Shown here piece after piece: positions 5,917-39,381 of a stretch of 64,000 bases of DNA. Numbering within the stretch: position 1 is the stretch's first letter; each line of letters begins with the position of its first letter. This DNA is from Candidatus Cloacimonadota bacterium (GTDB taxonomy: Bacteria > Cloacimonadota > Cloacimonadia > Cloacimonadales > GCA-2742885), in assembly GCA_002742885.1 (NCBI GenBank), contig PDOO01000028.1, positions 22,849 to 86,848 on the forward strand, in the 5' to 3' direction. The translations under genes and the position numbers were made by a program. Below the pieces are notes generated by a model, which made no database searches, was not told the origin of the DNA, and saw only the letters and a list, made by a program, of their open reading frames with translations.

Positions 5917-5971
5917 ATTATAAAGAGCAAATTTAGTAAAAACTAAAAAACTAAAAAAGAAGGAGACTATT

Positions 5972-23166: not shown

Positions 23167-23273
23167 GAAAATTTTGTAAAAAAGGAGTTTCGAGCAAAAA
23201 ACTTTTGACAAAATGAATCTTATTTAATATCTGCAAAACAAAATAATATTTTAATCAACATGAAGGTGATTAT

Positions 23274-24149
23274 ATGAATTCATTTATTTCGGTCAGACAA
23301 AAACTTCAGAAAATAGATAATTTGCCGACATTGCCTGCTGTGGCAGGTCGATTACTGGAGATTTTATCCTCGGACAATACTTCCATGTCTCAGATTGCCG
23401 ATATTTTGGCAACGGATCCTTCTCTTACCGGACGGGTTTTGAAAGTTTCCAATTCAGCTTATTTCGGAGTTACAAAAAAAATAGATACGATCAGGCTTGC
23501 TCTTGTTGTATTGGGAATGAAGGAAATAAACAATATTTTATTGAGTATTTCTTTATTTAAAACATTTGACGGAGTCGGGAAAAATTTTGATTTGAAAGAG
23601 TTTTGGTTACACTCCATTGCTGTCGGTTATTTATCGCAATACATTTTTAAACATTTCGGAATTTCTTCTCACGGAGAAGAATTTACTGCCGGGTTGATAC
23701 ATCAAATCGGTAAAATTATCCTGGAACAGTTTTTTCATGATGATTTTATTGAAATACTTGATTTGATAAATGATGAAAATTTGAGTGATTTGGAAGCGGA
23801 AGAAAAAGTCTTGGGCGTAACTCATCCCGACTTGGGAGCATGGCTGGCTCGTAAATGGCGTATTCCGGCTAATTTGGTTGAAGCAATAAGATATCACCGA
23901 ATGCCCGAATATGCTCAAAAAAATAAATTACTGCCTGCCGTTGTTAATATAAGCAATTCAATTGCCAATTATTACGAAATAGGGATGAGTACTGGCAAAG
24001 AACATTATGACCCGCATACAGCTCCGGGGTGGAAAATTATTGAAGAAAAGATAGAAAGAAAAATTAATCTCGAAGAATTTATTGAGTCGGTTGCCGATAA
24101 AAAAGAAGATATCATACAATACGCCGAATCAACTTTTAGAATAAAATAA
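23274..24149 (+). CDS. HDOD domain signalling protein
   Basis: LPTLPAVAGRLLEIL start and HS..VG..S, GLIHQIGK, THPDLGAWLARKWRIP motifs typical of HDOD (HD-related output domain). Confidence 0.85.
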   Translation: MNSFISVRQKLQKIDNLPTLPAVAGRLLEILSSDNTSMSQIADILATDPSLTGRVLKVSNSAYFGVTKKIDTIRLALVVLGMKEINNILLSISLFKTFDGVGKNFDLKEFWLHSIAVGYLSQYIFKHFGISSHGEEFTAGLIHQIGKIILEQFFHDDFIEILDLINDENLSDLEAEEKVLGVTHPDLGAWLARKWRIPANLVEAIRYHRMPEYAQKNKLLPAVVNISNSIANYYEIGMSTGKEHYDPHTAPGWKIIEEKIERKINLEEFIESVADKKEDIIQYAESTFRIK

Positions 24150-24172
24150 TTAAAATATTAAAGGATGTTTTT

Positions 24173-24550
24173 ATGGATATAAATTTTTTAGTTGTGGATG
24201 ACTCTCCCACTATGAGGAGAATTGTTATAAATACTCTCAAAAGATTAGGATATCGTTCTATCGAAGAAGCAGATAACGGACAAACTGCTTTGGATAAACT
24301 TAAAACAACCGAAGGCATTAATTTTATCGTTACCGATTGGAATATGCCTGTAATGGACGGACTTACTTTTGTAAAAACAGTCAGAAGTTCGCCTGAATTT
24401 GCCGATATCCCTATACTTATCGTAACTACCAGAAGCGTAAAGGATGATATTATCGAAGCCATGAAATCCGGAGTTAATAATTACGTTGTTAAACCTTTTA
24501 CGCCTGAAATCATGAAATCTAAAATAGAAACAATTCTCAGTAATCTTTAG
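24173..24550 (+). CDS. cheY: chemotaxis-type single-domain response regulator CheY
   Basis: Close match along the whole length to E. coli CheY as I remember it (FLVVDDSPTMRRIV, VTDWNMPVMDG, YVVKPFT). Confidence 0.9.
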   Translation: MDINFLVVDDSPTMRRIVINTLKRLGYRSIEEADNGQTALDKLKTTEGINFIVTDWNMPVMDGLTFVKTVRSSPEFADIPILIVTTRSVKDDIIEAMKSGVNNYVVKPFTPEIMKSKIETILSNL

Positions 24551-24558
24551 GAGGAATT

Positions 24559-25509
24559 GTGAGTAATGATACCGCTAAACGGGGAGTTTTACCGCTTATC
24601 GAAGAGTTAAAAGATGATTTCAATGCTCTTATGGAGGAAATGGCTCCTGAGATAGATAAAATGGAGTCTCGCGATCTTTCATCTCATTTCAGAAACCATT
24701 TTATAAGCATTTACAGTAAAATGAAAGAGCTTCCCGATAAGGTTGACCAAAGTTACGAGTTGGTTCAATCTGTAATAAAATCAATCCAATCTTCTCGGAG
24801 TGAACTGAAAAAAAGTGTGGACGGTTTGATAAAAAAAACCGGTATGCAATTACAGAAAATTACTTCCACTACAGAAGAAGCTACCAATAAAATACTCGAT
24901 ATTGCAGAAAAACTTGACGAAGATCAAGAAAAAATAATTGCTTTGATAGAAAAAATTGAAGCAGGTTCCGATAATGAAATATTTGCAGAGATTAAAGAAA
25001 AAATTTATAAAAATCAGGAATCGGCATTTACCATAATTGACTTTTTGCAATTTCAGGATATTACTGCTCAGCAAATTGCCGGCGCTTACGCCTTGCTTTC
25101 GGATACTGAAACTACTCTGCTTCGAGTTTCCAATTTGCTCAAAGAATTTGATGATAGAGAAACTGCCCTGAAAACTTTAAAAATTGATATTGATAGAAAT
25201 TCATTTAATTCGGATGCTGCTTTTTCCGATAAAAAAGATATACAAAACGCCATAGACGATATGTTTGAATCCCAAAATACTGATGTTGATATTCCGGATG
25301 ATAAAACATGCGTTAAAAAAATTTTGCCGAGTTCCGGTAAAGAAATTGATGAAAATTTTGATATTGACGCCTTGTTTGACAATAAGATGAAATCGGAAGA
25401 AAAATCATCTAAAGACGAAGATTTTGACATAGACGCCTTATTTAATAACAATAATAAAAAAGAAGAAAATAAGACTTCGCAAGATGAAATAGATAAATTG
25501 TTTGGATAA
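24559..25509 (+). CDS. CheZ-like CheY-P phosphatase with three C-terminal EIDAL-like peptides
   Basis: LQFQDITAQQI reproduces the CheZ active-site D-x3-Q (E. coli FQDLTGQ). Long predicted helical hairpin. C-terminal SQDEIDKLFG plus two internal [ND]FDIDALF repeats. GGAGG RBS. Confidence 0.65.
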   Translation: MSNDTAKRGVLPLIEELKDDFNALMEEMAPEIDKMESRDLSSHFRNHFISIYSKMKELPDKVDQSYELVQSVIKSIQSSRSELKKSVDGLIKKTGMQLQKITSTTEEATNKILDIAEKLDEDQEKIIALIEKIEAGSDNEIFAEIKEKIYKNQESAFTIIDFLQFQDITAQQIAGAYALLSDTETTLLRVSNLLKEFDDRETALKTLKIDIDRNSFNSDAAFSDKKDIQNAIDDMFESQNTDVDIPDDKTCVKKILPSSGKEIDENFDIDALFDNKMKSEEKSSKDEDFDIDALFNNNNKKEENKTSQDEIDKLFG

Positions 25510-25521
25510 AGTTGAGGAATT

Positions 25522-25887
25522 ATGACTAAAAATATTTTGGTTGTTGATGATGAAGAAAATATCCGTGAGATAATTTCGGAGTTTTTGCAGACATTGGGCT
25601 ATAATGTGGTTGAAGCATCTAACGGAGAAGAAGCTATAGTCGCTTGCAGCAAAACTAAATTTGATCTTATTTTATCTGATATACGAATGCCGAAAATGAA
25701 CGGATTGAAACTTTTGAAATCCATTAAAACTTATCGTCCTGATATGCCGGTTATTCTGATGACCGGTTATCAACCCTCGAAATCTCAGGAAGAAAGTTTA
25801 ACTACAAAAGCGGACGGTTATTTGCTTAAACCGTTTTCTCTTAACACATTAAGACAAGCTATCTTAAAAGTATTCAGAACTCTGTAG
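25522..25887 (+). CDS. single-domain response regulator (REC only)
   Basis: VVDDEE, LILSDIRMP, ILMTGY and LLKPF conserved REC residues. Confidence 0.9.
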   Translation: MTKNILVVDDEENIREIISEFLQTLGYNVVEASNGEEAIVACSKTKFDLILSDIRMPKMNGLKLLKSIKTYRPDMPVILMTGYQPSKSQEESLTTKADGYLLKPFSLNTLRQAILKVFRTL

Positions 25888-25894
25888 ATGTGAT

Positions 25895-26164
25895 ATGATA
25901 AATAATAAAATAATATCTAATTACGAAATTATTGATGATGATAAAGACCTTACCGGACAAAACCATCAAGTATATTCCGTTCCTAAAATTATTAAAAAGG
26001 CAATAATAGAAGAAGGGATTGAAGAACATATTTGCAAGGAACCTGATTTACCTGACAGAAATGTCAGGATTGAAGCTGTTCGCAATGAAAATAATGAAGT
26101 TGTAGGATTTGATATTGTTTGTAAATGCGGCGAGACTTTTAGTATTGAATTGGAATATGAGTGA
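25895..26164 (+). CDS. hypothetical 89-aa protein between the two REC genes
   Basis: An ORF with tight spacing on both sides: 7 nt after the upstream stop, and its own stop 3 nt before the next ATG. No motif recognised; C-terminal CKCGE. Confidence 0.45.
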   Translation: MINNKIISNYEIIDDDKDLTGQNHQVYSVPKIIKKAIIEEGIEEHICKEPDLPDRNVRIEAVRNENNEVVGFDIVCKCGETFSIELEYE

Positions 26165-26166
26165 GT

Positions 26167-26622
26167 ATGAAATTACTTATAGTTGACGATGAAATTAATT
26201 TAGCTGATTTATTGTCTGATTTCTTTCTGAAAAAAGAATACGAGGTCTTTTACGCTTCCACAGGGAGGGAAGCTCTGGCTGTTTGCAATAATGAAAAATT
26301 TGATATAGCTTTGGTGGATATGAAAATCCCTGACATAAGCGGTTTTGAAATAACATCAAACTTAAAAAAAATCAGTCCCGATTGCGTTGTTATTCTAATG
26401 ACCGGCTATCCTTATTCCGATTCTGATAAGGAAGCGATGAAAAACGGAGCTTCCGAATATATACTTAAACCTTTCAGCCTTAATGATTTGTGGGATTTAA
26501 TAGTGAAATATTTCGGAGAGGATAATAAAACTGCCGATTTGTCGGATAAACAAAACTTTAATGAACGGAGAAGAAAACAACATGTTCCTGACTCCTCTGA
26601 CAGAAAAATTTCGGAAATTTAA
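26167..26622 (+). CDS. single-domain response regulator (REC plus a basic tail)
   Basis: LLIVDDE, ALVDMKIP, ILMTGY and ILKPF motifs. Start placed at the ATG (MKLLIVDD) rather than the track GTG at 26161. Confidence 0.9.
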   Translation: MKLLIVDDEINLADLLSDFFLKKEYEVFYASTGREALAVCNNEKFDIALVDMKIPDISGFEITSNLKKISPDCVVILMTGYPYSDSDKEAMKNGASEYILKPFSLNDLWDLIVKYFGEDNKTADLSDKQNFNERRRKQHVPDSSDRKISEI

Positions 26623-26628
26623 TTCAGC

Positions 26629-27930
26629 ATGAAAAAATTAGGGATTAAAGAATTAACAGACGCTTTTCATAATTTTACCGATATTTTTGAAAAAATAGAG
26701 AAAACACATCAGGTTTTACAATCAAAAATAGATTTTTTGTCTTCTGAACTGGAAGAAAAAAATAAAGCTCTCGAAGGTGAGATAATTGAAGGCGGAAAAG
26801 TTAAAAACTTTTTGAATAATATATTGGAAAATATTTACAACGGAGTTATTGTTGTTAATGTGAAGGGAAAAATTACTTTGGCAAATAAAGCTGCCGAAGA
26901 AATAACCGGTTATTCAAAATCTTCTTTGATCGGGAAATCTTATAATCAGGTTTTTAATTATTCCGATTCTAAAAATAAATCAGCTCTTTATACTTTGACT
27001 ACGGGAAAAGAGTTTCATCATCGACAAAAAATTATCAGAACGGCAGAAGACGTTCAGTGTAACGTGGAGTTCAGCACCTCTTTGTTGCGAGATGAGAACG
27101 AGATTGTTTACGGAGCTATTGAGATGTTTAACGATATCTCGGAATTGCGTGAGCTGCAATCACGAATTACACAGGTGGAAACTTTGGCTGCTCTGGGCGA
27201 GATGGCTGCAAGCGTAGCTCATGAAATTCGCAATCCCTTGGGCGGCATCGGAGGATTTGCCGGATTGCTGGACAGGCAAATTCCTGCGGAAGACCCTAAA
27301 AAAGAACTGGTTAAACCCATAATAACGGGAGTTTCGAGATTAAATGATATTGTTTCCGATTTATTGACTTTTACCAGACCTCAACGCATTAATCCGGTTT
27401 GGGTTGATTTGAACGAAACTATTTCCGGAATCGTTGATTTTTTTAAATTCAGCCTTTCCGATATGGAAAAAGATGTCAGCGTTAATTTTGAGGTTCGCGG
27501 AACAGTTCCGAATTTATATTTGGATATTACTCTGTTTCAGCAGATAATGATAAACTTATTGAAAAATGCTTATGATGCTATTGATGATAAGGGAAGCATA
27601 ACCGTTTTAACAAAAATTGAAGTTCCCGATTCCATGAATGAAATTTTAAATGAAGAAGAGAAAGAAGAATTGTTGCAATTATTCAGTTTTGTTGAAATTT
27701 CCGTGTCGGATACGGGAAAAGGAATTGAACCTGAAAATTTAGCAAAACTTTTTAATCCTTTCTTTACTACAAAGGATGACGGTAACGGATTGGGATTGTC
27801 TATTTGCAAAAAGATAACTCAATTGCATAAAGGAGATATTAACGTTAAGTCGGTTGTAAACGAAGGAACAACATTTACCATAACATTGCCGTTGTATGAG
27901 AAATATGATGAGAAAAATACTGATAATTGA
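26629..27930 (+). CDS. soluble PAS-domain sensor histidine kinase
   Basis: No TM segment. N-terminal coiled coil and a PAS-like region. H-box SVAHEIRNPLGGI, N box LLKNAYDA and G boxes DTGKGI / GNGLGLS. Confidence 0.9.
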   Translation: MKKLGIKELTDAFHNFTDIFEKIEKTHQVLQSKIDFLSSELEEKNKALEGEIIEGGKVKNFLNNILENIYNGVIVVNVKGKITLANKAAEEITGYSKSSLIGKSYNQVFNYSDSKNKSALYTLTTGKEFHHRQKIIRTAEDVQCNVEFSTSLLRDENEIVYGAIEMFNDISELRELQSRITQVETLAALGEMAASVAHEIRNPLGGIGGFAGLLDRQIPAEDPKKELVKPIITGVSRLNDIVSDLLTFTRPQRINPVWVDLNETISGIVDFFKFSLSDMEKDVSVNFEVRGTVPNLYLDITLFQQIMINLLKNAYDAIDDKGSITVLTKIEVPDSMNEILNEEEKEELLQLFSFVEISVSDTGKGIEPENLAKLFNPFFTTKDDGNGLGLSICKKITQLHKGDINVKSVVNEGTTFTITLPLYEKYDEKNTDN

Positions 27931-29284
27931 TGATGAAGTTTTAATCAGAGGATTTATTTCCGGATTTTTTAAAACTTCAGAAACATATAAAAATTGCAAA
28001 GTTGATATTGCGGTTGACGGGGAAGAAGGAATATCCAAAATACGCGAAAATAAATATGACTTGATTTTTACGGATTTGAAAATGCCTCGTAAAACCGGAC
28101 TTGATGTATTGAAATTTGTGTCGGAGCATTCTCCGGAAACCGATACTGTTTTATTGACAGCTTACGGAGGAGGAGAAAGCGCTAAAAAAGCAATGGATTA
28201 CGGAGCTTACGAATATATTACCAAACCTATTGAAATATCTGAACTTGAATTAATTATAAAACGTATATTCGAGAGACGAGATTTGATTGCCGAAAACGAA
28301 TCCATGCAGAAAGAGCTTGAAGCAGGACGAATTTTTCCGAAAATGATTTACTCAAGTAAAGTCATGACGGAGATAATGGAGCTTATAAAACTTGTTGCTC
28401 CGACTTCATCAACCGTATTGATTACAGGAGAAAGCGGAACAGGTAAAGAGCTTATAGCCGAAGCTCTACATCATCTCAGTCCTCGAAAAAAACAAAATTA
28501 TATAAGAATAAATTGTGCCGCTTTGCCGGAACATTTGATAGAAAGCGAATTGTTCGGATTTGAAAAAGGAGCTTTTACCGGAGCCGTAAAGAGGACAAGA
28601 GGAAAATTTGAACTGGCTGACGGAGGTTCCATTCTTTTGGATGAAATCAGTGAGATGAACCTTGATTTGCAATCCAAACTTTTACGAGTTTTGCAAGAAA
28701 AAGAAGTTGCCAGAATCGGCAGCGAAAGTCCCGTAAAAGTTGATACGAGAGTGATAGCTACTTCCAACCGAGATTTGACTGAAGAGATTAAAAACGGGCG
28801 TTTCAGAGAAGATTTATTTTTTCGACTGAATATTGTTCCTGTTCATCTTCCTCCTTTACGAGAAAGAAAGAGCGATATTCCGGCATTGGTTGAAAAATTT
28901 GTCAAAAAAACTGCTTTTCAAGTCGGAGTCGGTAAAAAAACAATTAAATCTGAAGTTTTTGACTTATTGATGAAATATGATTGGCCGGGAAATATTCGAG
29001 AATTGCAAAACTCCATAGAACGAGCCATGATAACTACCCGTAAAGATGTATTGGATTTAAATTCTTTTCGTTTTTTGAATGTTAAAGGCTATGAAAGAGA
29101 AGAAAAAAATAATGTTTCGGAATCGTGCGGTTATGAGGGCATGACTTTAGCTGAAATAGAAAAGGATTTAATTTATAAAACTTTGGAAAAAACCGGAAAT
29201 AACAAGACTGAAACCGCTAAAATTCTCGGAGTTACGACCAGAACTTTGAGAAATAAGCTTAATCAATACGAACAGGAAGATTAA
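27896..29284 (+). CDS. sigma-54-dependent response regulator (NtrC-family enhancer-binding protein)
   Basis: REC (ILIIDDE, FTDLKMP, ITKPI), AAA+ (GESGTGKE, EKGAFTGA sigma-54 contact loop, ESELFG) and a C-terminal Fis-type HTH (NKTETAKILGVTTRTLRNKL). The start may be ATG 27905 or 27908. Overlaps the kinase stop. Confidence 0.9.
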   Translation: MRNMMRKILIIDDEVLIRGFISGFFKTSETYKNCKVDIAVDGEEGISKIRENKYDLIFTDLKMPRKTGLDVLKFVSEHSPETDTVLLTAYGGGESAKKAMDYGAYEYITKPIEISELELIIKRIFERRDLIAENESMQKELEAGRIFPKMIYSSKVMTEIMELIKLVAPTSSTVLITGESGTGKELIAEALHHLSPRKKQNYIRINCAALPEHLIESELFGFEKGAFTGAVKRTRGKFELADGGSILLDEISEMNLDLQSKLLRVLQEKEVARIGSESPVKVDTRVIATSNRDLTEEIKNGRFREDLFFRLNIVPVHLPPLRERKSDIPALVEKFVKKTAFQVGVGKKTIKSEVFDLLMKYDWPGNIRELQNSIERAMITTRKDVLDLNSFRFLNVKGYEREEKNNVSESCGYEGMTLAEIEKDLIYKTLEKTGNNKTETAKILGVTTRTLRNKLNQYEQED

Positions 29285-29292
29285 AATAAATT

Positions 29293-31002
29293 ATGCTTGC
29301 TTTTTTTATTGACTATAAACTTAAAAGTTATGAAAAAAAAATAAAGTATGCCATAGATTACGTGTGTTCCGTTTGCGGGTTTAATTATCGATATATCCTT
29401 AAAATGAGCGAATTAATGCCGAATGACATTCTTCTTTGTTATTCTTTGAATGAACCGACAAGCGAAGAATTGGCAAGGATCTCCGTAACGGGAATTACTT
29501 TTTATATTCCGGCTAACTTTATTTTGTTTGATTCTAAAGAATTTATTAAGTTTGTTAAAGGAAATCCGCGCAATTATCTTTATGAATTCAGATTGGATCA
29601 GAAAATTCCTGTTTTCGGAGAAAAACGATTTAAAAACCCGTTAAATCGTTATTCTTTGGGAGATGTTTTTATAGGAAAATTTAATTTTGATTTTTTCGGC
29701 AATATCTTTTTTAATTTAAATCTTTTGGAAGAGAGGCTTATTGGAGAAAAAAAAGATGCTCAAGGAAAATATCCGGATTCTTCTTATCTCTTGGGTGATT
29801 ATACCGATTATCCTTATATAAACGCATTAATTAAATTATTTGAGAATTTTATAGAAGAAGGAATTTCCGTATCAGGTCAATATCTTCTCAAAAAAGAAGT
29901 TTGGCCGGAAAAAGAAGAATTTGCCGTTGCCGTTATGCATTCTCTGAAGTCTTATCGAAAATGGGAGGGACTCAGTATTTTCACGGCTTTTGGAAAAGAT
30001 ATTCTAAAACTTTTTTCATCCAAATACAAAATGGCTTTCAAAAATATAATCGAAGAATTTAAATATGCTTTCAACAATGATGAACCTTATTGGAATTTCG
30101 GTGAGATGTTTTCTATTGAAGAAGAATATAATATTAACACTTCTTATTTTTTCAAAACCGATTTTGATAAGTCAGGTGATAAAGATTTGTATGAATTGGT
30201 TAACTATTTGAAAGAAAATGACCATGAAATAGGTCTGTTGGCTTCCGAAAAATCCATGAAAGATGAATTGCATAAAACGGAATGCGAAAGGTTAGAACAA
30301 AAAACTGATGTTGAAATTAAAGGCGTAAGACAGGTAAATAATTTTTTTGACAGAGAATATACCGTTCAAAATCACGGGAAAGCGGATTTCCTTTATGACG
30401 CTTCACTCGGTTTTTCTGAAAAATCGGGATTTAAAGGGGGAATAGCTTATCCTTTTAATTTTTATAATTTTTATCCGGGAAGGGAAAGTAAAGAGGATGA
30501 TATTCAGCAATATAAACAATTGGAAATACCGGTAATTTTTTCTGATGATCATCTTAGAATAAATGAATATGAATATTGTTCTTATGATGATGCTTCCATT
30601 TTGCTGAGAAGATATATCGGATACATAAAAAAGTTTAACGGTTTATTGACGCTGGATTTCAATCAGGAAAATTTTTATGACATTTCTTACGACAGAACTC
30701 TTTATTCGTTCGCTTTGGCAAAAATAAAAGAAAATAATACGTGGGTTGCTCCTTTGAATGAAATTGCGGAGTGGTGGCAAAAACGAAAGAGAGTTAAATC
30801 TTTTGCAACGGAAGAAGGCATAAAAATAGTTTTTTATGATGATATTAAATCCATTACTTTTTCGGTAAAAGGCATTGCTGAAATAAATTCCGTTAAAGGA
30901 GCTTCTCATTTCATTTCAGAAAATAAAGTTACTTTTACGGATGTAAAAAAGAAGCAGGAAGCTTTTATTATTTTGGATACTCCGCCGGAAGCGGTTGAGT
31001 GA
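29293..31002 (+). CDS. large uncharacterised protein, possibly polysaccharide-deacetylase-related
   Basis: 569 aa. The FNFDFFGNIFFNLNLLEE segment resembles the N-terminal domain seen on some deacetylase-like EPS proteins, from memory and unverified. First gene after the EBP, 8 nt downstream. Confidence 0.35.
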   Translation: MLAFFIDYKLKSYEKKIKYAIDYVCSVCGFNYRYILKMSELMPNDILLCYSLNEPTSEELARISVTGITFYIPANFILFDSKEFIKFVKGNPRNYLYEFRLDQKIPVFGEKRFKNPLNRYSLGDVFIGKFNFDFFGNIFFNLNLLEERLIGEKKDAQGKYPDSSYLLGDYTDYPYINALIKLFENFIEEGISVSGQYLLKKEVWPEKEEFAVAVMHSLKSYRKWEGLSIFTAFGKDILKLFSSKYKMAFKNIIEEFKYAFNNDEPYWNFGEMFSIEEEYNINTSYFFKTDFDKSGDKDLYELVNYLKENDHEIGLLASEKSMKDELHKTECERLEQKTDVEIKGVRQVNNFFDREYTVQNHGKADFLYDASLGFSEKSGFKGGIAYPFNFYNFYPGRESKEDDIQQYKQLEIPVIFSDDHLRINEYEYCSYDDASILLRRYIGYIKKFNGLLTLDFNQENFYDISYDRTLYSFALAKIKENNTWVAPLNEIAEWWQKRKRVKSFATEEGIKIVFYDDIKSITFSVKGIAEINSVKGASHFISENKVTFTDVKKKQEAFIILDTPPEAVE

Positions 31003-31016
31003 AATGAGCAGTAAGA

Positions 31017-32276
31017 TTGAAAAGAATTCTTTTTATTTCGTATTTTTTTCCGCCCTTGGGAGGTTCCGGCGTACAGCGTCCTGTCAAACAGGTTAAATAT
31101 TTTAGAAAAAAAGGCTGGAAAGTTGACGTTGTTTCCGTAAAAGACATTATTTTTAATTCCTTTGACGAAACTTTGCTTGATGATTGCGGAGATTTTGATA
31201 TTTTTCGCACTAAAACTTTTGATCCGATGGGCATTCTTTATCTTTTCCAAAAATCAAATTCCGTCGATAATAAAATTTATAACGGCACGAAAGAAAATTT
31301 AAAATCTTTGATCAGAACCTCTTTTCCCGTGGATGAAAAGATCGGTTGGTTTTTGCCGGCTGTTTGGAAATGTCTCTTGCTTATCGGAAAAAACAATTAT
31401 GATTTAATCTTTTCTTCCTGTTTACCTGCTTCTTCCGGGCTTATAGCTTATTTTCTGTCTGAAATTTCGGGCATAAAATTTGCCGTTGATTTTCGTGATT
31501 TATACTTTTTGAATCCTTATCCCCGTTTTTTGACTCCATTGCATAAATTCATAGGATTTCAATTGGAAAAAAGACTGATGATTCATGCTGAATTTATCGT
31601 AACTTCAACCCGTTCTTCCCGAGATGATTTGATGAAATTATACGGTAAACGTTACGGAAAAAAAATAATTTATTCTTATAACGGTTGGGATGAAGATGAT
31701 TTCAAGAGTGAAGTTTCGTCAAACAGCAATAAATTTACAATCAGATTTACGGGTAATTTATATTCCAATCAAACTTCCCTCTATTTTGTAAAAGCATTAA
31801 AGAAAATAAAAAAAGATAATCCTGAATTATTGGAAAATGTTGCAATAAATTTTGTCGGAAATTATTTCGCAAATGAAGCGGCTTACTTATCCGACAAGGA
31901 GTTTAAGGAATTAATTGAGATTACTCCTCAGGTTGAACACAGAGTTGCAATCGAAAAAATGCAGTCTGCCGATTTATTGCTTATTTTTTTGTCTTCCGTA
32001 AAAAGCGACGGCGTTGTTCCCGGAAAATTATTTGAATATCTACGCTCGGGAAGACCGATTTTCGGTATGGTTCCTCCGCAAGGAGAGTGTGCGGAATTAA
32101 TGCTTGAACACGGACATGAATTGATTTGCCCTCAGGAAAATGTTGATTTGATTATTAAAAATTTAAAAAAAATTCTGACGCATAAAGAATATTATAAACT
32201 AGTTTCTCGCAAATTCAATCCTCAATATTGTCGCCGAAATCAGATGAATGCAATCATGGAAAGGATAGAATGTTAA
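31017..32276 (+). CDS. glycosyltransferase (GT-B, GT4-like)
   Basis: MKRILFISYFFPPLGGSGVQR N-terminus and C-terminal VVPGKLFEYLRSGRPIFG (E-x7-E-region-like). Confidence 0.7.
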   Translation: MKRILFISYFFPPLGGSGVQRPVKQVKYFRKKGWKVDVVSVKDIIFNSFDETLLDDCGDFDIFRTKTFDPMGILYLFQKSNSVDNKIYNGTKENLKSLIRTSFPVDEKIGWFLPAVWKCLLLIGKNNYDLIFSSCLPASSGLIAYFLSEISGIKFAVDFRDLYFLNPYPRFLTPLHKFIGFQLEKRLMIHAEFIVTSTRSSRDDLMKLYGKRYGKKIIYSYNGWDEDDFKSEVSSNSNKFTIRFTGNLYSNQTSLYFVKALKKIKKDNPELLENVAINFVGNYFANEAAYLSDKEFKELIEITPQVEHRVAIEKMQSADLLLIFLSSVKSDGVVPGKLFEYLRSGRPIFGMVPPQGECAELMLEHGHELICPQENVDLIIKNLKKILTHKEYYKLVSRKFNPQYCRRNQMNAIMERIEC

Positions 32277-33169
32277 GATATTTTATTGCTGAGGTTAAGA
32301 AAAAAATTCTGTCTTTGATCGGTTCCGAAAAGATAAAAAATAAAATAAGATATTATTATAATTACAAAACTTTTAAAGAAGCCGAGAAGCTTGAAAAAAA
32401 AATTAAACGTTTAGCCGAAGAATCAACGGAATCCGGTATTTCCGGAAAAGACGACAATTTAATTGTTTCTATGACAACTTTCGGAAAAAGGACTGATAAG
32501 GTTTATTTGACGGTTGAAACGCTTTTCAGACAATCTGTAAAAGCCGATAAAATAATTCTTTGGCTGGCGAAAGATGAATTTAATCCGAATAATATTCCTG
32601 AAAGTTTAAAAAGGTGCATTAAACGCGGTTTAACTGTTGATTTTTGCAAAAATATCAGGTCTTATAAAAAATTGATTCCGACTTTGCGAAAATATTCAGG
32701 TTATAAAATCGTAACCGTTGATGACGATGTATTTTATCCCGAAAATTTTCTTGAGGATTTCGTTAAGGCATATGAAGATGATCCCGGTTCCGTATATTGT
32801 ACGAGAGCCAGAAAAATTCACTCCGACAGAGATTACGAGTATTGGGAAAATATAATAGAACCTGAGCGCGGACTTGATGTTATGCCTATCGGATGCGGAG
32901 GTGTTTTTTATCCTCCGGAAGTTTTTCATGAAGACATTTTGAAAGAAAATTTATTTTGGGAAATGGCGAGATTCGGAGATGATATTTGGTTTAAAGCCAT
33001 GACATTGCTCAATAATTATCCTTGCAAATTAATAAAAAAACAAAAAGACTTTCCTATTGTTCCGGACACTCAAAATTATGCTTTGTGGGATGATAATTTT
33101 TCGGGAAGAAACGATAAACAGATAAAAAAAGTGTTCGATTATTATAATTTATGGGAAAAATTTAAATAA
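32270..33169 (+). CDS. putative glycosyltransferase (capsule-locus type, DxD)
   Basis: IVSMTTFGKRTDKVYLTVETLFRQS..IILWLAKDEF and TVDDDVFYP motifs, as seen in capsule/O-antigen locus transferases. Start moved to ATG 32270, which gives an ATGTTAA overlap with the upstream stop. Confidence 0.5.
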   Translation: MLRYFIAEVKKKILSLIGSEKIKNKIRYYYNYKTFKEAEKLEKKIKRLAEESTESGISGKDDNLIVSMTTFGKRTDKVYLTVETLFRQSVKADKIILWLAKDEFNPNNIPESLKRCIKRGLTVDFCKNIRSYKKLIPTLRKYSGYKIVTVDDDVFYPENFLEDFVKAYEDDPGSVYCTRARKIHSDRDYEYWENIIEPERGLDVMPIGCGGVFYPPEVFHEDILKENLFWEMARFGDDIWFKAMTLLNNYPCKLIKKQKDFPIVPDTQNYALWDDNFSGRNDKQIKKVFDYYNLWEKFK

Positions 33170-33171
33170 AG

Positions 33172-34755
33172 TTGTCGATTATGAATAAATTTTCTTCTCT
33201 TGAGATTGCCGTTTACGGAAATGATGAAATGCGAGATTCTTTGCTTTTGACGGAAGGATTTTTTACCGAAAAAATAAGCTCTCTCTCTGAAATTTTTAAT
33301 TATCCGGTTACGGTGATTTCCGATATTTGTTCTTACTCTGAAATTACTGAGTTTGCCGAAAAAGGCGGTTTCTTTATTCTTGATTCTGCTGCTGCCGGCA
33401 AGATATTTAATATTAAATATAAAACCGATAATTGCAAATATTGGGAATGTCGTTTTAAAAAATTGAATATTGCCTCTTCGATTATAGAGCTTCCTTTCAA
33501 AACAATTTGGTCGAGTTATCCCGATTCATGGACTGAAATTGATCAGGGAAGCGGAATTTTGAAAAGAACCTGCGGTAAAGGCGGATTTATTGTTTTGCCT
33601 TTTGTTTTTGAGGATTTAACGAAAAGACGAACTTTAAAAAGAAAACAATTTTACGCCGAAAGATTAGAACTTCCTTCTGAAAGAGTTGCTTCTTTTTCGT
33701 TGAAACCGGCAAGAGAAATATTATCTGCTGTCATTGAGTTTATTTACGGAGAGAAAAATCTTCCTTTGCTTAAAAAACGTCCTTATCCCGGTTTGGAGAA
33801 GAATCTTTTTTTATTCAGAATAGATACTGATTTCGCTTCTTCGGAAGATTCCGAAAAATTAAATGAACTTTTGAAAAAACATAAATTGCGAGCTTCTTGG
33901 TTTATTGATACGTTTGATGAAAAAAGAGTCAAAAATTTTTATGCGGCTTTGGAAACCGGAGAAACAGGCATTCATTGTTATCATCATTTTATTTCCGGAG
34001 ACAAGAATCAAATAGAAACTGATTTGAATGCTTCTTTGCGAGTATGCAAAAAATACGGAATTTCTCCTAAAGGTTATGTCGCTCCGTTCGGAGAATGGTA
34101 TCCCGAGCTTACGGAAGTTTTGTCGGAAAAAGGATTTAATTATTCTTCTGAATTTGCTTACGATTATGATAATTTTCCCTCTTATCCTGTAATCAACGGA
34201 AAAAAAACTGATGTTATGCAGATTCCGATTCATCCTGTCAGTCCGGGGCGTTTGCGTCGTTCTCATTTTCTTGACGCAGAAAAAAAAGCTTATTTCAGGA
34301 AAGTTGCCGAAAAGAAAATATTAAATAACGAAATTATTGCTTTTTATCATCATCCTGCTCATAAAATGTTTGACGTATTATCTGATGTCTTTGATTATAT
34401 AGGAAGCTTTAAATTAAAAAATATAACATTTTATGAATATTATAATTTTTGCAAAAAGAGAGACGAATTTAAAATAAAAACCAAATTCGAGAACGGTAAA
34501 ATCTTTTTGCGCAAAGAAATTTCCTGTTCTGAAATCGGTTTGGAAATTATTTGGAAAGGTAAATCGGCAGACGTCAATTGCGCTGATATTTTGCATCTCG
34601 AAAATATAAATTTTTCCGTTAAAACTCATTCTGAACCTGAAGATGATTATAAGAAAATTTATCGTTTTCATTGGCGAAGTTTGCTTTATGATTACGAATC
34701 GAAAAAAAGCAAGAAGTATTTTGAAAGGAGACTGAAAGAATGCGGATATTTATGA
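33172..34755 (+). CDS. large uncharacterised protein with NodB/polysaccharide-deacetylase-like core
   Basis: FRIDTDF..ASWFI and IHCYHH / APFGEW resemble degenerate CE4 motifs. The N-terminal ~200 aa are unassigned. The start may be ATG 33181. Confidence 0.35.
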   Translation: MSIMNKFSSLEIAVYGNDEMRDSLLLTEGFFTEKISSLSEIFNYPVTVISDICSYSEITEFAEKGGFFILDSAAAGKIFNIKYKTDNCKYWECRFKKLNIASSIIELPFKTIWSSYPDSWTEIDQGSGILKRTCGKGGFIVLPFVFEDLTKRRTLKRKQFYAERLELPSERVASFSLKPAREILSAVIEFIYGEKNLPLLKKRPYPGLEKNLFLFRIDTDFASSEDSEKLNELLKKHKLRASWFIDTFDEKRVKNFYAALETGETGIHCYHHFISGDKNQIETDLNASLRVCKKYGISPKGYVAPFGEWYPELTEVLSEKGFNYSSEFAYDYDNFPSYPVINGKKTDVMQIPIHPVSPGRLRRSHFLDAEKKAYFRKVAEKKILNNEIIAFYHHPAHKMFDVLSDVFDYIGSFKLKNITFYEYYNFCKKRDEFKIKTKFENGKIFLRKEISCSEIGLEIIWKGKSADVNCADILHLENINFSVKTHSEPEDDYKKIYRFHWRSLLYDYESKKSKKYFERRLKECGYL

Positions 34756-35783
34756 CGGGCTATCAAACGTTGATGATGAACAGGGGCGGTCCGACGTATA
34801 AAATTCAGAAAACGAAAGAGCATTTGGAAAAACTCGGATTGGAAGTTATTCTCTATGATATGTGGGAAAAAAAATACGGTCTCGGAAAAGGCGATATCTT
34901 CCATATATTCAGCGCGAGCATAAGCACCTACGATATGGCAAAAAATTTAAAGTCAAAAGGATTGCCTTATGTCGTTAATCCTATTTTTTACAGTAATCTT
35001 TCCGCTTCTCAAATAAAAATTTATCGTAAAGCGAGCGGATTTCTCAAAAAAGCTTTTGTTCGTTCTTATAATGACTATGATTTGACAAAATATATTTGCG
35101 ACGGAGCTGAATTTGTTTTGCCGAATACGGATGCGGAAGGCGATTTATTGCATGACGGTCTGGAAGTATCTCGCAAAAATATGCTGACAATGCGCAACGG
35201 AGTCGAAGAAAGATTTTATCATGCGACTCCCGAACTTTTTGTCAAAAAATACGGTCTGAAAGATTTTCTTTTGTATGTCGGTCATATAGGACCTTACAGG
35301 AAAAACACGCTTCGGATTTTGAAAGCGGCGGAAAAAATTGATCGTCCTTTTGTTTTGATTGCCGATATGTTGAAAGACGGCGAAGCTCCCGCTTGTCGAG
35401 AAATTATAGAAAGAAACAAGCATATTTTTTATTTGGGCTGGATGGATCATGATGATCCCATGTTGGAATCGGCTTATGCGGCAGCTGATTCATTTATTTT
35501 GTCGTCAACTTTCGAAACTCCGGGACGAGCCGCTTTGGAAGCAGCTTTGGCGGGGGCAAAAATTATTATTACTCCGAACGGAGGAACAAAAGAATATTTC
35601 GGTAATCATGCTTTGTATCCGAATCCTCGAAAAGTTGACGAAATTGCGGATGCTGCCGAAAAATCTTTTAATAAAAAGAAAAGCAATTGTTTGAGAAATC
35701 ACATCAGAGAAAATTTTATTTGGGAAAAAATCGCTTATAAACATGCGGAACTTTATCGGAAAATAAATGAGCAAATACGTTAA
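34740..35783 (+). CDS. glycosyltransferase family 4 (GT-B)
   Basis: FILSSTFETPGRAALEAALAGAKIIITPNGGTKEYF, the classic GT4 C-terminal motif. Confidence 0.8.
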   Translation: MRIFMTGYQTLMMNRGGPTYKIQKTKEHLEKLGLEVILYDMWEKKYGLGKGDIFHIFSASISTYDMAKNLKSKGLPYVVNPIFYSNLSASQIKIYRKASGFLKKAFVRSYNDYDLTKYICDGAEFVLPNTDAEGDLLHDGLEVSRKNMLTMRNGVEERFYHATPELFVKKYGLKDFLLYVGHIGPYRKNTLRILKAAEKIDRPFVLIADMLKDGEAPACREIIERNKHIFYLGWMDHDDPMLESAYAAADSFILSSTFETPGRAALEAALAGAKIIITPNGGTKEYFGNHALYPNPRKVDEIADAAEKSFNKKKSNCLRNHIRENFIWEKIAYKHAELYRKINEQIR

Positions 35784-37218
35784 AAAAACTTTTCAATACT
35801 TCTCGGGGAAGTTATTGGAGAAAATATCCGTTTTTTTTACGATCCCGATTTTAACCGGCAATTTATCGGGTACCGATTACGGAATTTACGTAAATACAGG
35901 ATTTTATGTCTCTATTTGCAGTTTAATTTTGCTTTTGGGATTTGAACAGGCGATATTTTCTTTTTTTAATGCCGGCAAGACAAAAGATTATCATAAAAAA
36001 TTATTTGCTTCCATGTTCGGATTAATGGGCATTGCCGGTGTAATTTCGGCTTTTGCATTATTTATTTTTTCCGATCAATTGTCCTATCTTTTAGCGAAAG
36101 AAAACAATATCTCCGGCATATTTTTACTTGTTTCCGGGATAATTTATTTTGATTCTTTTACGGCTTTGACCGGTTCGGTTTTTAATATGGGAGAAGACGC
36201 AAAGCGTTATGCCGTAATCACAAATCTCAAAACGGTTTTGATTTTAGTCGGATTTCTTGTTTTTTCGCATTTTCATGACTTGACTTTGATCTTAGTTTAC
36301 AGGATTATTTTTATTTTTTCTTTTATTCAATTCCCCGTTTCCGTTTTTTTCTTGCATCAAAAATTTAACTTTAATTTTTTTACCGATATTTTTAAAAATA
36401 TTGATTTTGTTTTGGTTCGCAAATTATTGATTTTTTCTTTGCCTATGATACCCGGTACTCTGGGTTCTCTTATTTTGAGATCGTCGGACAGATTGATGTT
36501 GACTCACTTATCTGAAAACGGTTTGGTTGCCTCGGGTTTATACGGAGTCGGTTACAGAATGGGCATGATTATGGGTTTTTTATTCTCGATTATAAGTTTG
36601 AGCTTTTTTCCCGTCGCAATAAAAAAATATCAAAAGGAGAATGACGATAACTACGGCTTGTTGCGCGAAATGTTTAATATTATCTGTAAATACGGATTTT
36701 TGCTGGGATTGGGTATTATTATGTTTGTCCCTGATTTGTTCTCTTTTTATGTCGGACCCGATTTTTTTGTTGCCCGTAAGTATGTGATTTACGGAGTAGG
36801 CTCGGTTTTTATGCTCGGAATTATGAATTATTATAATCTCGGCTTTTATATTCACAAAAAATCTTATCACATTGCCGGAATTGTTATTTCGGCTTCTCTG
36901 TTGAACATATTTTTGAATTGGCTTCTGATTCCTGAAATCGGGATTGTCGGAGCCGGTATTTCTTCCGTAGCAGCTTATGCCGTCGCTTCTTTTTTTCACG
37001 GCAGAAACTCTTATCGGTTATTCGGGATTGCTCCTGATTTCGCCAAATCTTTTTATGTCCTGACGGGATTTATCATTGCCGATTTTTTGATTTCCGATCT
37101 TAAAGTCTGTCTAAGTAATTTTTTTATGAAATTAATGATTTTTTCCGGCGTTTCGCTTATGATCCTTTTACGCAGTTATAAAAAAAAGGATTTAATTTTT
37201 CGAAATATTTTTAAATAA
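35767..37218 (+). CDS. wzx: Wzx-type oligosaccharide flippase (MOP superfamily)
   Basis: 483 aa with about 12-14 TM segments, the usual polysaccharide-biosynthesis-protein architecture. Located in a glycan locus. Confidence 0.75.
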   Translation: MSKYVKKTFQYFSGKLLEKISVFFTIPILTGNLSGTDYGIYVNTGFYVSICSLILLLGFEQAIFSFFNAGKTKDYHKKLFASMFGLMGIAGVISAFALFIFSDQLSYLLAKENNISGIFLLVSGIIYFDSFTALTGSVFNMGEDAKRYAVITNLKTVLILVGFLVFSHFHDLTLILVYRIIFIFSFIQFPVSVFFLHQKFNFNFFTDIFKNIDFVLVRKLLIFSLPMIPGTLGSLILRSSDRLMLTHLSENGLVASGLYGVGYRMGMIMGFLFSIISLSFFPVAIKKYQKENDDNYGLLREMFNIICKYGFLLGLGIIMFVPDLFSFYVGPDFFVARKYVIYGVGSVFMLGIMNYYNLGFYIHKKSYHIAGIVISASLLNIFLNWLLIPEIGIVGAGISSVAAYAVASFFHGRNSYRLFGIAPDFAKSFYVLTGFIIADFLISDLKVCLSNFFMKLMIFSGVSLMILLRSYKKKDLIFRNIFK

Positions 37219-37228
37219 ACGGGGAATT

Positions 37229-38332
37229 ATGAAAAAAATCCGAATACTTCATATTCAGTTATTGCCTCTGCTGTCCGGGGTACAAAACGTAATGCTTGAT
37301 ATTTTGGACGGGTTGCCGAAAGATAAATACGAAATTTGGGTTATGTCGAGAGGAAACGGTCCTCTTATAAAAGTTTTGAAAGAGAGAAAATTTCATCATA
37401 TAGAATTAAAAAAAATTGTCAGAAATATTTCTTTAAGCGATATTTCCGCTTTCCTGGAAATTTATTTTCACATAAGAAATTATAAATTTGATATCGTTCA
37501 TACTCACAGTTCGAAACCGGGATTTTTGGGACGAATCGCAGCAAAAGCGACAGGAACAAGCTTAATTGTTCATACTTCCCACGGAGCGCCTTACCATGAA
37601 ATGCAACCTTTTTTTATAAACAGATTTTATAAAATTTTGGAAAAAATTGCAGGATTGTTTGCCGATAAAGTTGTTTTTGTTAATAATTTTATCGAAGAAG
37701 AAGCAATTGATTTGAAACTTATCGCTCCCGAAAAAGCCGTGACAATTTACAACGGAATTTATTTAAAGAAAAATATTGTAAAGGAAATAAAAAATACCGA
37801 AAAAATAATCGTTGGGACGTGCAGCAGATTTGAGAAACAAAAAAATATAAAAGTTATGACAAGAGCAATTATAAAGGCTTGTCGCAAAAATAAAAATCTT
37901 CATTTTATCATGCTCGGAGACGGAAAAGATTTCGATTATTGTCTTAATTTGGTAAAATCCGCCGGATTGGAAGAACGAATTGAGATGCCCGGTTGGCAAA
38001 ATCCGGATGAACGCTATCCCGAATTTGATTATTTTTTGATTTATTCCGGATGGGAAGGTTTATCAATAAGCGCTTTGGATGCTTTGAGTTACGGCTTACC
38101 TGTTGTCAGTTCTGATATTCCTGCCATGCAGGTTTTGGTAAAAGAAAATTATAACGGTTTTTTGGTTGATTTTCATAATCCCGATAAATTGACGGAAGTT
38201 TTGGCAAATTTAAAGAAGGACGAAAAATTTTTGGAAATGGGAAAAAATTCTCTTAAACTTGCCGATAATTTTTCGGTTGAAAAAATGAAAAAAGAATATT
38301 TGAAATTATACGAGGAAGGGACGGTAAAATGA
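37229..38332 (+). CDS. glycosyltransferase family 4
   Basis: IVHTHSSKPG N-domain and SGWEGLSISALDALSYGLPVVSSDIPAMQVLVKENYNGFLV C-domain motif. Confidence 0.85.
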   Translation: MKKIRILHIQLLPLLSGVQNVMLDILDGLPKDKYEIWVMSRGNGPLIKVLKERKFHHIELKKIVRNISLSDISAFLEIYFHIRNYKFDIVHTHSSKPGFLGRIAAKATGTSLIVHTSHGAPYHEMQPFFINRFYKILEKIAGLFADKVVFVNNFIEEEAIDLKLIAPEKAVTIYNGIYLKKNIVKEIKNTEKIIVGTCSRFEKQKNIKVMTRAIIKACRKNKNLHFIMLGDGKDFDYCLNLVKSAGLEERIEMPGWQNPDERYPEFDYFLIYSGWEGLSISALDALSYGLPVVSSDIPAMQVLVKENYNGFLVDFHNPDKLTEVLANLKKDEKFLEMGKNSLKLADNFSVEKMKKEYLKLYEEGTVK

Positions 38333-39381
38333 AAATAAATTTTATTTTGTTGGCTGTTATGACGGCGGTTCAGATTGGCGGAACCTATTTTTTGACTCCT
38401 TTAAACATAAAATTAAGTAAACGTTTCGGATTTACGGTTCATCCTCACAATAGGGGGATTCATACTAAGGTTACTCCTGTTGCCGGCGGTTTGTCGATTG
38501 CCGTTCCTTTTTTGATTAATTTGTTTATGTTAGCTTATTTTTTCAGATCTGCTTGGGAATCTTCCTCTTTCGGGATTCTTATTGCAGGCAATATTTTGTT
38601 TCTGCTCTTGGGATTGGCGGATGATAAATTGACACATTCGGCATGGTATAAATTAGTTGTCCAAATCGCAATTGCGATTCTTATGTTTTACGGAAATTTC
38701 AGAATTAATCTTTTGACCAATCCTTTCGGAGAAAGCTTTGAACTGGGATTTTTATCTTTACCTTTAACAATAGGTTGGTATCTTGTCGTTATTAATGCCT
38801 TGAACCTTATAGACGGTATGGACGGATTGGCTTCCGGAATAAGTTCTATTGTTTGTTTTTCTCTTTTTATTTTCGGATTGAAGTTGGGAAATCCTGTTTT
38901 GATTTATGCCGGATTAACTTTGGGAATCGGATCTTTTACTTTTCTTAAGTATAATTTTTATCCTGCGAGAATATTTCTCGGAGATACGGGAAGTCTTTTT
39001 TTGGGGTTCAATATTGCGTCTTTAACGGTAGCCGGTTTATCTCAGGTAAAAGGTTTTACTGCCATGACGATGATCTTTCCTATAGCTTTGCTTTTTATAC
39101 CCATATTTGATATGATAAGTTCGGTTTTCAGAAGATTAGGAAAAAAAAGACATATTTTTCAGGCTGATAAAGAGCATATTCATCATGTTTTGCTCGGAAG
39201 CGGTTTGAGTCAAAAGACTGTTGCAATAATTTGTTATGTGATTACCGCAATGTTTTCTTTGGTGGCAATAGGCTTTTCTTTTTCGGGGAAAAAGATATTT
39301 TTTGCTTTGCTGCTGGCTGTCTTAATGGCGGTTACGGCATCGGTTTTTTATTTATACAAACATTTTAAAAAAGAACAATAA
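38329..39381 (+). CDS. MraY/WecA-family polyprenyl-phosphate HexNAc-1-phosphate transferase (initiating enzyme)
   Basis: About 10-11 TM segments, with LGLADDKL, NLIDGMDGLA and FLGDTGSLFLG motifs. Confidence 0.9.
   Translation: MKINFILLAVMTAVQIGGTYFLTPLNIKLSKRFGFTVHPHNRGIHTKVTPVAGGLSIAVPFLINLFMLAYFFRSAWESSSFGILIAGNILFLLLGLADDKLTHSAWYKLVVQIAIAILMFYGNFRINLLTNPFGESFELGFLSLPLTIGWYLVVINALNLIDGMDGLASGISSIVCFSLFIFGLKLGNPVLIYAGLTLGIGSFTFLKYNFYPARIFLGDTGSLFLGFNIASLTVAGLSQVKGFTAMTMIFPIALLFIPIFDMISSVFRRLGKKRHIFQADKEHIHHVLLGSGLSQKTVAIICYVITAMFSLVAIGFSFSGKKIFFALLLAVLMAVTASVFYLYKHFKKEQ

Follow-up and report, generated by a model that had tools for sequence, protein, structure and literature searches.

Polar flagellates that possess FlhF and FlhG almost always carry a flagellum-associated two-component system, whose kinase is cytoplasmic (FlrB and FleS contain a PAS domain, and FleS also a coiled coil) and whose NtrC-type partner drives the sigma-54-dependent rod and hook genes; co-occurrence of the kinase with FlhF served as validation in the study concerned (Burnham, Kolar and Hendrixson, PMC7064773). 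Here we describe a cassette of eight genes from a Candidatus Cloacimonadota bacterium, belonging to a phylum for which our literature search on the regulation of chemotaxis and motility found nothing specific. The analysed stretch, hereafter the window, comprises 64,000 nucleotides (contig PDOO01000028.1, here C17:22849-86848, where C stands for contig) of a source genome (G000) of 2.17 Mb in 53 contigs that is 93.6% complete. The cassette occupies positions 23274-29284 on the + strand and encodes a stand-alone HDOD protein, CheY, a CheZ-like protein, a stand-alone receiver (REC2), a protein of 89 residues (p89), a second stand-alone receiver (REC3), a PAS-containing histidine kinase (HK) and a sigma-54-dependent enhancer-binding protein (EBP). 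An earlier annotation made from the sequence of the window (the original prediction) had read these genes as a Che-like phosphotransfer circuit coupling surface glycan and filament production. We consider it likely, though by no means certain, that the cassette is instead a motility control operon of flagellated Cloacimonadales, in which cheY and cheZ are combined with a two-component system like FlrBC, FleSR or FlgSR and with an insert of REC2, p89 and REC3.

The kinase-EBP pair of the window resembles FlrBC of V. cholerae, FleSR of P. aeruginosa and FlgSR of C. jejuni and H. pylori in that the kinase lacks transmembrane (TM) segments and has a PAS and coiled-coil architecture, and in that the partner is an NtrC-type REC-AAA+-HTH activator with a GAFTGA motif. 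The likeness extends to the presence of rpoN in the genome, to the strict way in which the pair and flagella occur together, and to an apparent sigma-28-type promoter before flaB; candidate sigma-54 promoters precede flagellar genes, rod genes among them. Unlike those systems, the window pair occurs in the Cloacimonadota, a phylum of the FCB group, shares one operon with cheY-cheZ, and is separated from cheZ by two extra receivers and a small protein; fliF and fliG apparently belong to the flgB operon that a sigma-54 site precedes. By these features the pair appears to fit the functional description of the FlrBC/FleSR/FlgSR kind, while passing no curated ortholog model.

In the flagellar regions of Pseudomonas and Vibrio the chemotaxis genes follow the order cheY-cheZ-cheA-cheB. 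These operons, like those of Zixibacteria and Ignavibacteria described below, share with the window the adjacent cheY and cheZ, the Asp/Gln motif and docking peptide of CheZ, and a linkage to flagellar regulators. They differ from it in that cheA and cheB of the source genome lie at C10 and C31, and in that its CheZ is longer, carries a docking peptide repeated one to five times across the phylum, and falls below the Pfam threshold. The CheY1/CheZ-HP pair of Helicobacter pylori similarly joins a CheY to a CheZ too divergent for routine annotation; it belongs, however, to a different lineage, and no ChePep-like partner was identified here. Several stand-alone receivers beside a single kinase are likewise found in the CheY1/CheY2 sink of Sinorhizobium and in the DivK/PleD pathway of Caulobacter. 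In contrast to these branched pathways, the window has a dedicated CheZ, its REC2 and REC3 are of NtrC type, and its phosphotransfer steps are predicted ones.

Conservation of the cassette and its association with flagella

The kinase (433 aa, 26629-27930) has a coiled-coil-like N-terminus with heptad-like repeats, followed in Pfam searches by PAS (residues 61-172), HisKA and HATPase_c domains, and its H-box (H198), N, G1 and G2 boxes are intact. The EBP (462 aa, 27896-29284) is a response regulator of REC-AAA+(sigma-54)-HTH_8 architecture (Sigma54_activat, E 3.8e-69) with a Walker A motif and GAFTGA at residue 225. Phyletic profiles were obtained from one set of 201 Cloacimonadota genomes (G, genome; f, family), in which EBP homologs were bimodally distributed, with 63-68% identity in 20 genomes (families f1, f2, f8, f9, f10 and f12) and at most 46% elsewhere. 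FlhA was encoded by exactly these 20 Cloacimonadales genomes and by G022 of another family. Within the Cloacimonadales, the EBP ortholog was thus present in 20/20 FlhA-positive genomes and in none of the roughly 180 FlhA-negative ones (Fisher p 1e-26, phylogeny ignored). The best EBP match in G022 had 45% identity in the genome search and 44% by BLAST, and its homologous kinase-EBP pair is flanked by a motA-flgI-flgH-like run on one side and by cheY-cheZ on the other, with flhA about 4 kb away. REC2 showed the same distribution: orthologs of at least 71% identity were found in 19 of the 20 EBP-ortholog genomes, the twentieth having a divergent copy beside its EBP, and none was found in the non-flagellated genomes of the set. 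The EBP on C19, 3.6 kb from the flagellins, served as a control and showed graded identities of 41-60% in over 110 genomes with and without flagella. We rejected this C19 protein as a second flagellum-specific activator, since its homologs are common in non-flagellated genomes. Flagellar motility itself is a minority trait in the sampled Cloacimonadota, with FlhA in 21/201 genomes belonging to few families.

Gene order is equally constant. A pattern scan for this CheZ, limited to one genome per species, gave 21 Cloacimonadota loci (L, locus), and the order CheY-CheZ-REC2-p89-REC3-HK-EBP, whose conservation the original prediction had proposed as a check, was present in 21/21 as far as the contigs reach, with small gaps or overlaps between the genes. 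Because the same order recurs in all of these loci, the arrangement is not due to chance. Identities between the loci were 71-81% for CheY, 62-72% for the EBP, 44-58% for the kinase, 44-56% for CheZ and 27-40% for p89.

Outside the Cloacimonadota, the scan picked up loci of Zixibacteria, Ignavibacteriales, KSB1, Kryptoniota and Gemmatimonadota. The loci of Zixibacteria and Ignavibacteriales, which represent sister phyla, read in succession RsbU/W-like, STAS, HEAT-repeat, REC2/REC3-like, CheR, CheY', CheY, CheZ, CheA, CheB, PAS kinase and EBP, where CheR, CheA and CheB were named by their best matches to Pfam-confirmed genes of the source genome and by N-terminal motifs; the gene following CheA matches the Pfam-confirmed CheB on C31, and in locus L052 a MotA-like gene lies 3' of the EBP. 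When compared with the source genome, the outgroup kinases next to cheB scored 216-268 bits against the window kinase and at most 125 against the next kinase, and the outgroup EBPs scored 384-416 bits against the window EBP and at most 334 against the next. Since the window pair is the best match by such wide margins, the kinase and the EBP appear to have long stood 3' of the che operon. Comparison of the gene orders further indicates that in Cloacimonadales cheA and cheB were removed from between cheZ and the kinase, and that REC2-p89-REC3 stands there instead. The possibility had been raised that CheY and CheZ belong to a canonical che operon split by assembly. A canonical operon is indeed what the outgroups contain, but the split is evolutionary and not an artefact of assembly, because about 46 kb of contig sequence precede the cassette and about 37 kb follow it.

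The remainder of the genome contains the genes for a flagellum. FlhA and a FliA-type sigma factor are encoded on C50, together with FlhF-, FlhG- and MotA/B-like genes (assigned by position and motif only), the FlhF- and FlhG-like genes lying 3' of flhA. Other motility genes encode rod and hook proteins, FlgI, FlgK/L-like proteins, FliD and three flagellins, and rpoN is found on C26. Sigma-54 sites were taken as the best intergenic, correctly oriented -24/-12 matches genome-wide. By this measure a near-consensus site, TGGCATTATAATTGCA, is located directly 5' of a flgB-flgC-fliE-fliF-fliG-fliH-fliI-like operon (C39:2184-8498), and two others precede fliD (TGGCATATACATTGCA, C51) and flgI (CGGCGCAAGGATTGCA, C25). 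At the hook gene the region that would be searched for such a site coincides with the contig end. One of the flagellins, flaB, is preceded by a sigma-28-like promoter.

According to our hypothesis the cassette joins two modules that would already have been neighbours in the last ancestor that Cloacimonadota had in common with Zixibacteria and Ignavibacteria. The first would be the output and signal-termination end of an ordinary chemotaxis pathway, in which CheA, encoded on another contig, would phosphorylate CheY, phosphorylated CheY would act on the flagellar switch, and CheZ would dephosphorylate CheY by means of its Asp/Gln pair and three docking peptides. In the second module the cytoplasmic coiled-coil and PAS kinase would activate the NtrC-type EBP, which would in turn drive sigma-54-dependent flagellar genes, with the flgB-fliI operon, fliD and flgI as candidate targets. 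REC2, REC3 and p89 would probably be side branches of the same kinase, either as competing phospho-acceptors or as connectors that tune activation of the EBP.

This interpretation should be read with some caution, as several observations weigh against it. The kinase and the EBP fall below every NCBIfam equivalog cut-off; the EBP reaches 311 bits with FlgR and 389 with FlbD (cut-off 750 for both), as against 413 with AtoC and 390 with NtrC, and since the scores lie under the cut-offs and the generic AtoC and NtrC models score at least as high, orthology with FlrBC, FleSR or FlgSR is not established. The sigma-54 operon on C39 apparently includes fliF and fliG, such that MS-ring/rotor and rod genes would share one promoter; this layout counts against the proposal in that it differs from the hierarchy of Vibrio and Campylobacter, where the two-component system senses the products of fliF and fliG. 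Moreover, as the genome encodes five EBPs, no sigma-54 promoter is assignable to this one in particular. The co-occurrence of EBP and FlhA could stem from a single gain or loss, since the flagellated families may form one clade. Finally, transcription may read through from the EBP into the glycan genes of this genome, whose first gene begins only 8 nt after the EBP stop.

CheY, CheZ and the dispersed chemotaxis genes

The original prediction stressed that no CheA, CheW or methyl-accepting chemotaxis protein (MCP) accompanies the cassette, and suggested that cheA and MCP genes be sought elsewhere in the genome. Their absence holds for the window and not for the genome: one CheA, CheW, CheB, CheR and six MCPs were found, all on other contigs. 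The only CheA of the genome (C10:30112-33132) is a hybrid protein of 1006 aa with Hpt, H-kinase_dim, HATPase_c, two CheW domains and REC; CheW is encoded at C10:53485, and CheB and CheR on C31. CheA is preceded by an RsbW-like kinase and a STAS protein (C10:29062-33132), partner-switching genes with which the che operon of Zixibacteria and Ignavibacteria likewise begins. The whole genome, by an HMM census, encodes about 31 receiver proteins and about 20 kinases, along with 5 EBPs and 5 HDOD proteins.

The CheY of the window (125 aa, 24173-24550; REC E 2.4e-27) is, as far as its sequence can tell, a canonical flagellar-type CheY. In E. coli CheY the key residues are D12, D13, D57, T87, Y106 and K109. 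The window protein retains the corresponding phospho-site residues (DD at 9-10, D in TDWNMP, T in VTT, and Y and K in NNYVVKPF). Its top 49 matches in the PDB were all CheY (E 1e-39 to 1e-28), the best being 3GWG (E 1.2e-39), which we take to be CheY1 of Helicobacter pylori, and in the same search E. coli CheY matched with E ~1e-34. The NCBIfam CheY model was its top match by 16 orders of magnitude, with a score of 133.1 bits that is below the equivalog cut-off of 189 (NF007901) of a model built for enteric-type CheY. Identity to the CheY of the outgroup che operons was 59-66%. The predicted partners of CheY, a CheA and a flagellar switch, both have their genes in the source genome.

The protein encoded at 24559-25509 (316 aa), the only CheZ of the genome, is less easily recognized. 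It scored 15.7 bits with PF04344, for which the Pfam gathering cut-off is 30.7, and direct sequence and profile searches of the PDB returned coiled-coil noise only. However, the segment LQFQDITAQQI, with D167 and Q171 four residues apart, is invariant in 22 Cloacimonadota CheZ sequences; the catalytic pair of E. coli CheZ is D143/Q147. The weakest CheZ homologs found were PF04344-positive proteins that bear LQVQDITAQQLA and end in SQDEIDKLFS. Comparison by hhalign of the window-type CheZ set with this PF04344-positive set gave 99.5% probability (E 6.7e-23), and the PF04344-positive profile in turn matched E. coli CheZ (1KMI_Z, E 0.0023) in an alignment that pairs QDITAQQ with QDLTGQ. Because of the motif and of this intermediate-profile link to 1KMI_Z, we regard the protein as a divergent but genuine CheZ. 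It also contains three predicted CheY-docking peptides near the C-terminus, DIDALF at 268 and 290 and EIDKLF at 310, the last within the terminal SQDEIDKLFG. Across the Cloacimonadota the CheZ C-termini hold one to five such DIDALF-type repeats and end in SQD(D/E)IDKLF, and the PF04344-positive CheZ of Ignavibacteria type mostly has one.

The architecture of the cassette as first described, with eight co-oriented genes spaced by -35 to +23 nt, was borne out by our open reading frame (ORF) call, the successive gaps being 23, 8, 12, 7, -4, 6 and -35 nt, and the EBP stop lying 8 nt from the next gene. The domain list also stood: Pfam identified HDOD, three stand-alone REC proteins, PAS-HisKA-HATPase_c and REC-Sigma54_activat-HTH_8, and CheZ was assigned by profile comparison. 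TM segments were found in none of the eight proteins. The first of these, the stand-alone HDOD protein (291 aa, 23274-24149; PF08668, E 6.9e-59), adjoins cheY in a single clade only (L006, L009, L012, L014-L018, L022 and the window), and the upstream genes vary elsewhere. Stand-alone HDOD proteins alter swimming in Pseudomonas syringae, P. protegens, Xanthomonas and Campylobacter. The HDOD gene of the cassette, of a kind that has been connected with swimming time and again, would be an addition confined to one clade. Three of the five HDOD paralogs of the genome, that of the cassette included, adjoin motility genes. One of them (region C50:29706-31363) lies after fliA, 3' of flhA and the FlhF-, FlhG- and FliA-like genes, and another (C31:58256-61555) ends a string of cheB, cheR, a CheY-like REC protein of 142 aa and HDOD, near an MCP gene.

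Upstream of the cassette, a candidate sigma-70-type operon promoter (23205-23233, + strand) consists of an A-tract, TTGACA, a 17-nt spacer and TATCTG. In almost every Cloacimonadota locus the element AAAAAACTTTGACAAA with an AT-rich -10 recurs 5' of the gene that opens the cluster, that is, 5' of HDOD where HDOD exists and otherwise 5' of CheY; no sigma-28 or sigma-54 promoter was found 5' of the cluster, where this conserved sigma-70-type motif stands instead. Since a TTGACA-type motif is kept before whichever gene is first, the cassette is probably transcribed from a housekeeping promoter.

REC2, p89 and REC3

What is new in the cassette is limited to the receiver-p89-receiver insert and the p89 family. 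REC2 (121 aa, 25522-25887; REC E 2.4e-32) is the best-conserved gene of the cluster, with 70-91% identity in most Cloacimonadota loci, and REC3 (153 aa, 26161-26622; REC E 1.7e-24) shows 40-48% identity and a length of 118-249 aa in relatives. The C-terminal tail of REC3 varies among relatives from nothing to about 125 extra residues, while REC2 is near-invariant in length and sequence. Both receivers retain all phospho-acceptor residues. Their helix alpha1 reads VDDE-x-(I/L)-R, which is the NtrC type also seen in the EBP receiver, whereas that of CheY reads VDDSPTMRRIV. The best NCBIfam matches of both are NtrC- and AtoC-type receivers, and the nearest solved relatives of REC2 are the generic stand-alone receivers Spo0F and the response regulator of 3A0R. 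Because helix alpha1 and the family matches resemble the EBP receiver and not CheY, we infer that REC2 and REC3 may be extra substrates of the adjacent kinase.

One could alternatively suppose that CheA, and not the adjacent PAS kinase, phosphorylates REC2 and REC3, which would make them auxiliary receivers of the chemotaxis pathway that serve as sinks or as other outputs, in which case the cassette would be chiefly a chemotaxis unit and the kinase-EBP pair a mere neighbour. The location of both receivers near cheZ and the extreme conservation of REC2 would agree with this, as would the REC2/REC3-like receiver that outgroup che operons have between the HEAT-repeat protein and CheR. We nevertheless find the explanation improbable, given the NtrC-like character of the two receivers just described and the presence of a CheZ, which makes a phosphate sink unnecessary.

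As to the branched phosphotransfer circuit of the original prediction, a layout of one kinase and several receivers feeding an EBP is plausible. That the circuit would be a Che-like system independent of flagella is unsupported, because CheY is canonical, the genome holds a full flagellum and CheA set, and the outgroup genes stand in a che operon. The statement that the cassette has only one kinase is true of its 6 kb and not of the window, which also encodes a membrane hybrid PAS kinase at 39429-41642.

Between the two receivers, p89 (89 aa, 25895-26164) belongs to no Pfam or NCBIfam family, and was found in 20/20 Cloacimonadota loci that span the REC2-REC3 interval. In an AlphaFold2 model its first 55 residues are disordered and residues 58-85 form a three-stranded beta sheet (pLDDT ~90) that contains CxCGE; C76, C78, G79 and Y88 are invariant. 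We rejected p89 as the Hpt protein of a REC-Hpt-REC phosphorelay, as it has no invariant His and is a beta sheet where it is ordered. A fold search of the PDB gave no significant match, the best hits (E 0.74) being Trm112-like or zinc-ribbon-like. By profile search the C-terminal module (...INKxxxGxIxxIEVxCxCGEKIxIxxxY) was detected in about 350 representative clusters, mostly of proteins of 58-100 aa and in some cases of acidic proteins of 180-390 aa; ten of the larger proteins were scanned and contained no Pfam family. In the family the beta module with CxCGEK comes behind an acidic stretch that is disordered.

Four contexts of p89-family genes were sampled outside the Cloacimonadota, of which three were flagellar and the fourth, a contig of 735 bp, showed nothing. 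In KSB1 the gene (L088:6001-6273) lies directly 5' of flgB-flgC-(REC protein)-fliE-fliF-fliG. A second (L090:5001-5222) comes right after a FliA-type sigma factor, within a fliN-fliO-fliP-flhA cluster that runs on to an HDOD-GGDEF protein and a receiver, and a third (L091:2650-2883) comes right after another FliA-type sigma factor, 5' of CheX, two receivers and CheA. Hence p89 is a member of an undescribed family of small proteins adjoining flagellar genes, and it becomes a candidate link to the state of flagellar assembly. A bolder proposal, which we hold to be rather unlikely as a whole, is that REC2-p89-REC3 forms a new checkpoint module in which p89 reports the status of flagellar assembly or export to receivers that gate transfer from the kinase to the EBP. 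If true, flagellum-associated two-component systems would thereby gain the input mechanism that has long been sought for them.

Neighbouring surface genes and implications for the Cloacimonadota

The genes that follow the cassette (29293-39381) encode glycosyltransferases, a Wzx-type flippase and a WecA-type initiating transferase, beginning with the gene g569. The locus is closed, on the same strand and 10 kb downstream of the cassette, by the hybrid kinase at 39429-41642 (737 aa; TM, PAS, HisKA, HATPase and REC), which may be a more natural candidate for its regulator. Pilin-like genes lie at 5348-6373, and the genome further encodes type IV pilus ATPases and, on C53, a canonical pilin. Among the best sigma-54 sites of the genome is also TGGCAAAGAATTTGCA, which precedes a Glyco_trans_1_2/DUF3880 protein of 562 aa (C53:71986-73751).

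Could the kinase and the EBP be a PilSR-like regulator of sigma-54-dependent pilin genes, namely the C53 pilin and/or the leaderless genes at 5348-6373, with a link to cheYZ that is historical only? The C53 pilin and the two pilin-like genes of the window do have some of the best-scoring sigma-54-like sites upstream of them, and no EBP is encoded near the C53 pilus genes. However, PilS is membrane-anchored and the PilS-PilR pair stands beside pilin and pilus genes, whereas the window kinase is free of membrane domains and neither it nor the EBP adjoins a pilin or pilus gene, the nearest pilin-like gene being 17 kb off; the analogy to PilSR drawn in the original prediction therefore fails. Together with the exact agreement between EBP orthologs and FlhA, and with the flagellar and che genes that surround the pair in G022 and the outgroups, this makes a PilSR-like role quite improbable.

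Whether the EBP is coupled to the glycan genes can be judged from their distribution. Both the 8-nt junction with g569 (29285-29292), with neither a terminator nor a promoter detected in it, and the presence of g569 and glycosyltransferases 3' of the cluster in most flagellated relatives speak for a connection. Yet g569 is present in 182/201 genomes, about 160 of them without an EBP ortholog and regardless of flagella, and in the non-flagellated G003, G006 and G021 it is the first gene of a separate operon, preceded by a divergent intergenic stretch of 250-320 nt. In most flagellated relatives (L004-L022) about 0.9-1.9 kb with an extra gene of ~320 aa intervenes between the EBP and g569, and the tight junction is seen only in the window, L007 and L024. 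Sigma-54 sites and terminators are absent throughout 22.8-31.2 kb. Sigma-54-like matches in the window numbered 87 where 100.7 were expected, that is, they were at chance; only the site at 5900-5915 stands out, and the best site of the window precedes a pilin-like gene. Since g569 is widespread, forms its own operon elsewhere, is spaced from the EBP in relatives and lacks a sigma-54 site, the glycan link is adjacency to an order-wide core locus and not a regulatory unit. The adjacency itself was thus described correctly, and the regulatory coupling is unsupported. The further analogy to Dif/Eps of Myxococcus does not hold either, as that system combines MCP-, CheW- and CheA-like proteins with regulators and a dedicated exopolysaccharide (EPS) locus, whereas the cassette has no such proteins and the glycan locus is order-wide and independent of it. 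A CheA-independent branched or phosphate-sink circuit whose EBP couples glycan and pilin-like filament production, in the manner of PilSR and Dif/Eps, is consequently highly improbable, in view of the independence of g569 from an EBP that follows flagella exactly, the CheA, CheW and MCPs of the genome, and the canonical che operon that contains CheY-CheZ in the outgroups.

In conclusion, our data favor a motility control operon over these alternatives. They show that a cassette with many receivers, few kinases and no CheA can be one piece of a chemotaxis and flagellar system that is ordinary, though dispersed over the genome. About one tenth of the sampled Cloacimonadota genomes are flagellated, and those carry a fixed regulatory operon. 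If the proposed function is correct, the idea of flagellum-associated two-component systems would be extended from Proteobacteria and Campylobacterota to phyla of the FCB group, where the system would long have been linked to the che operon. The p89 family, which is in no database, is found repeatedly beside fliA, flgB or che genes.

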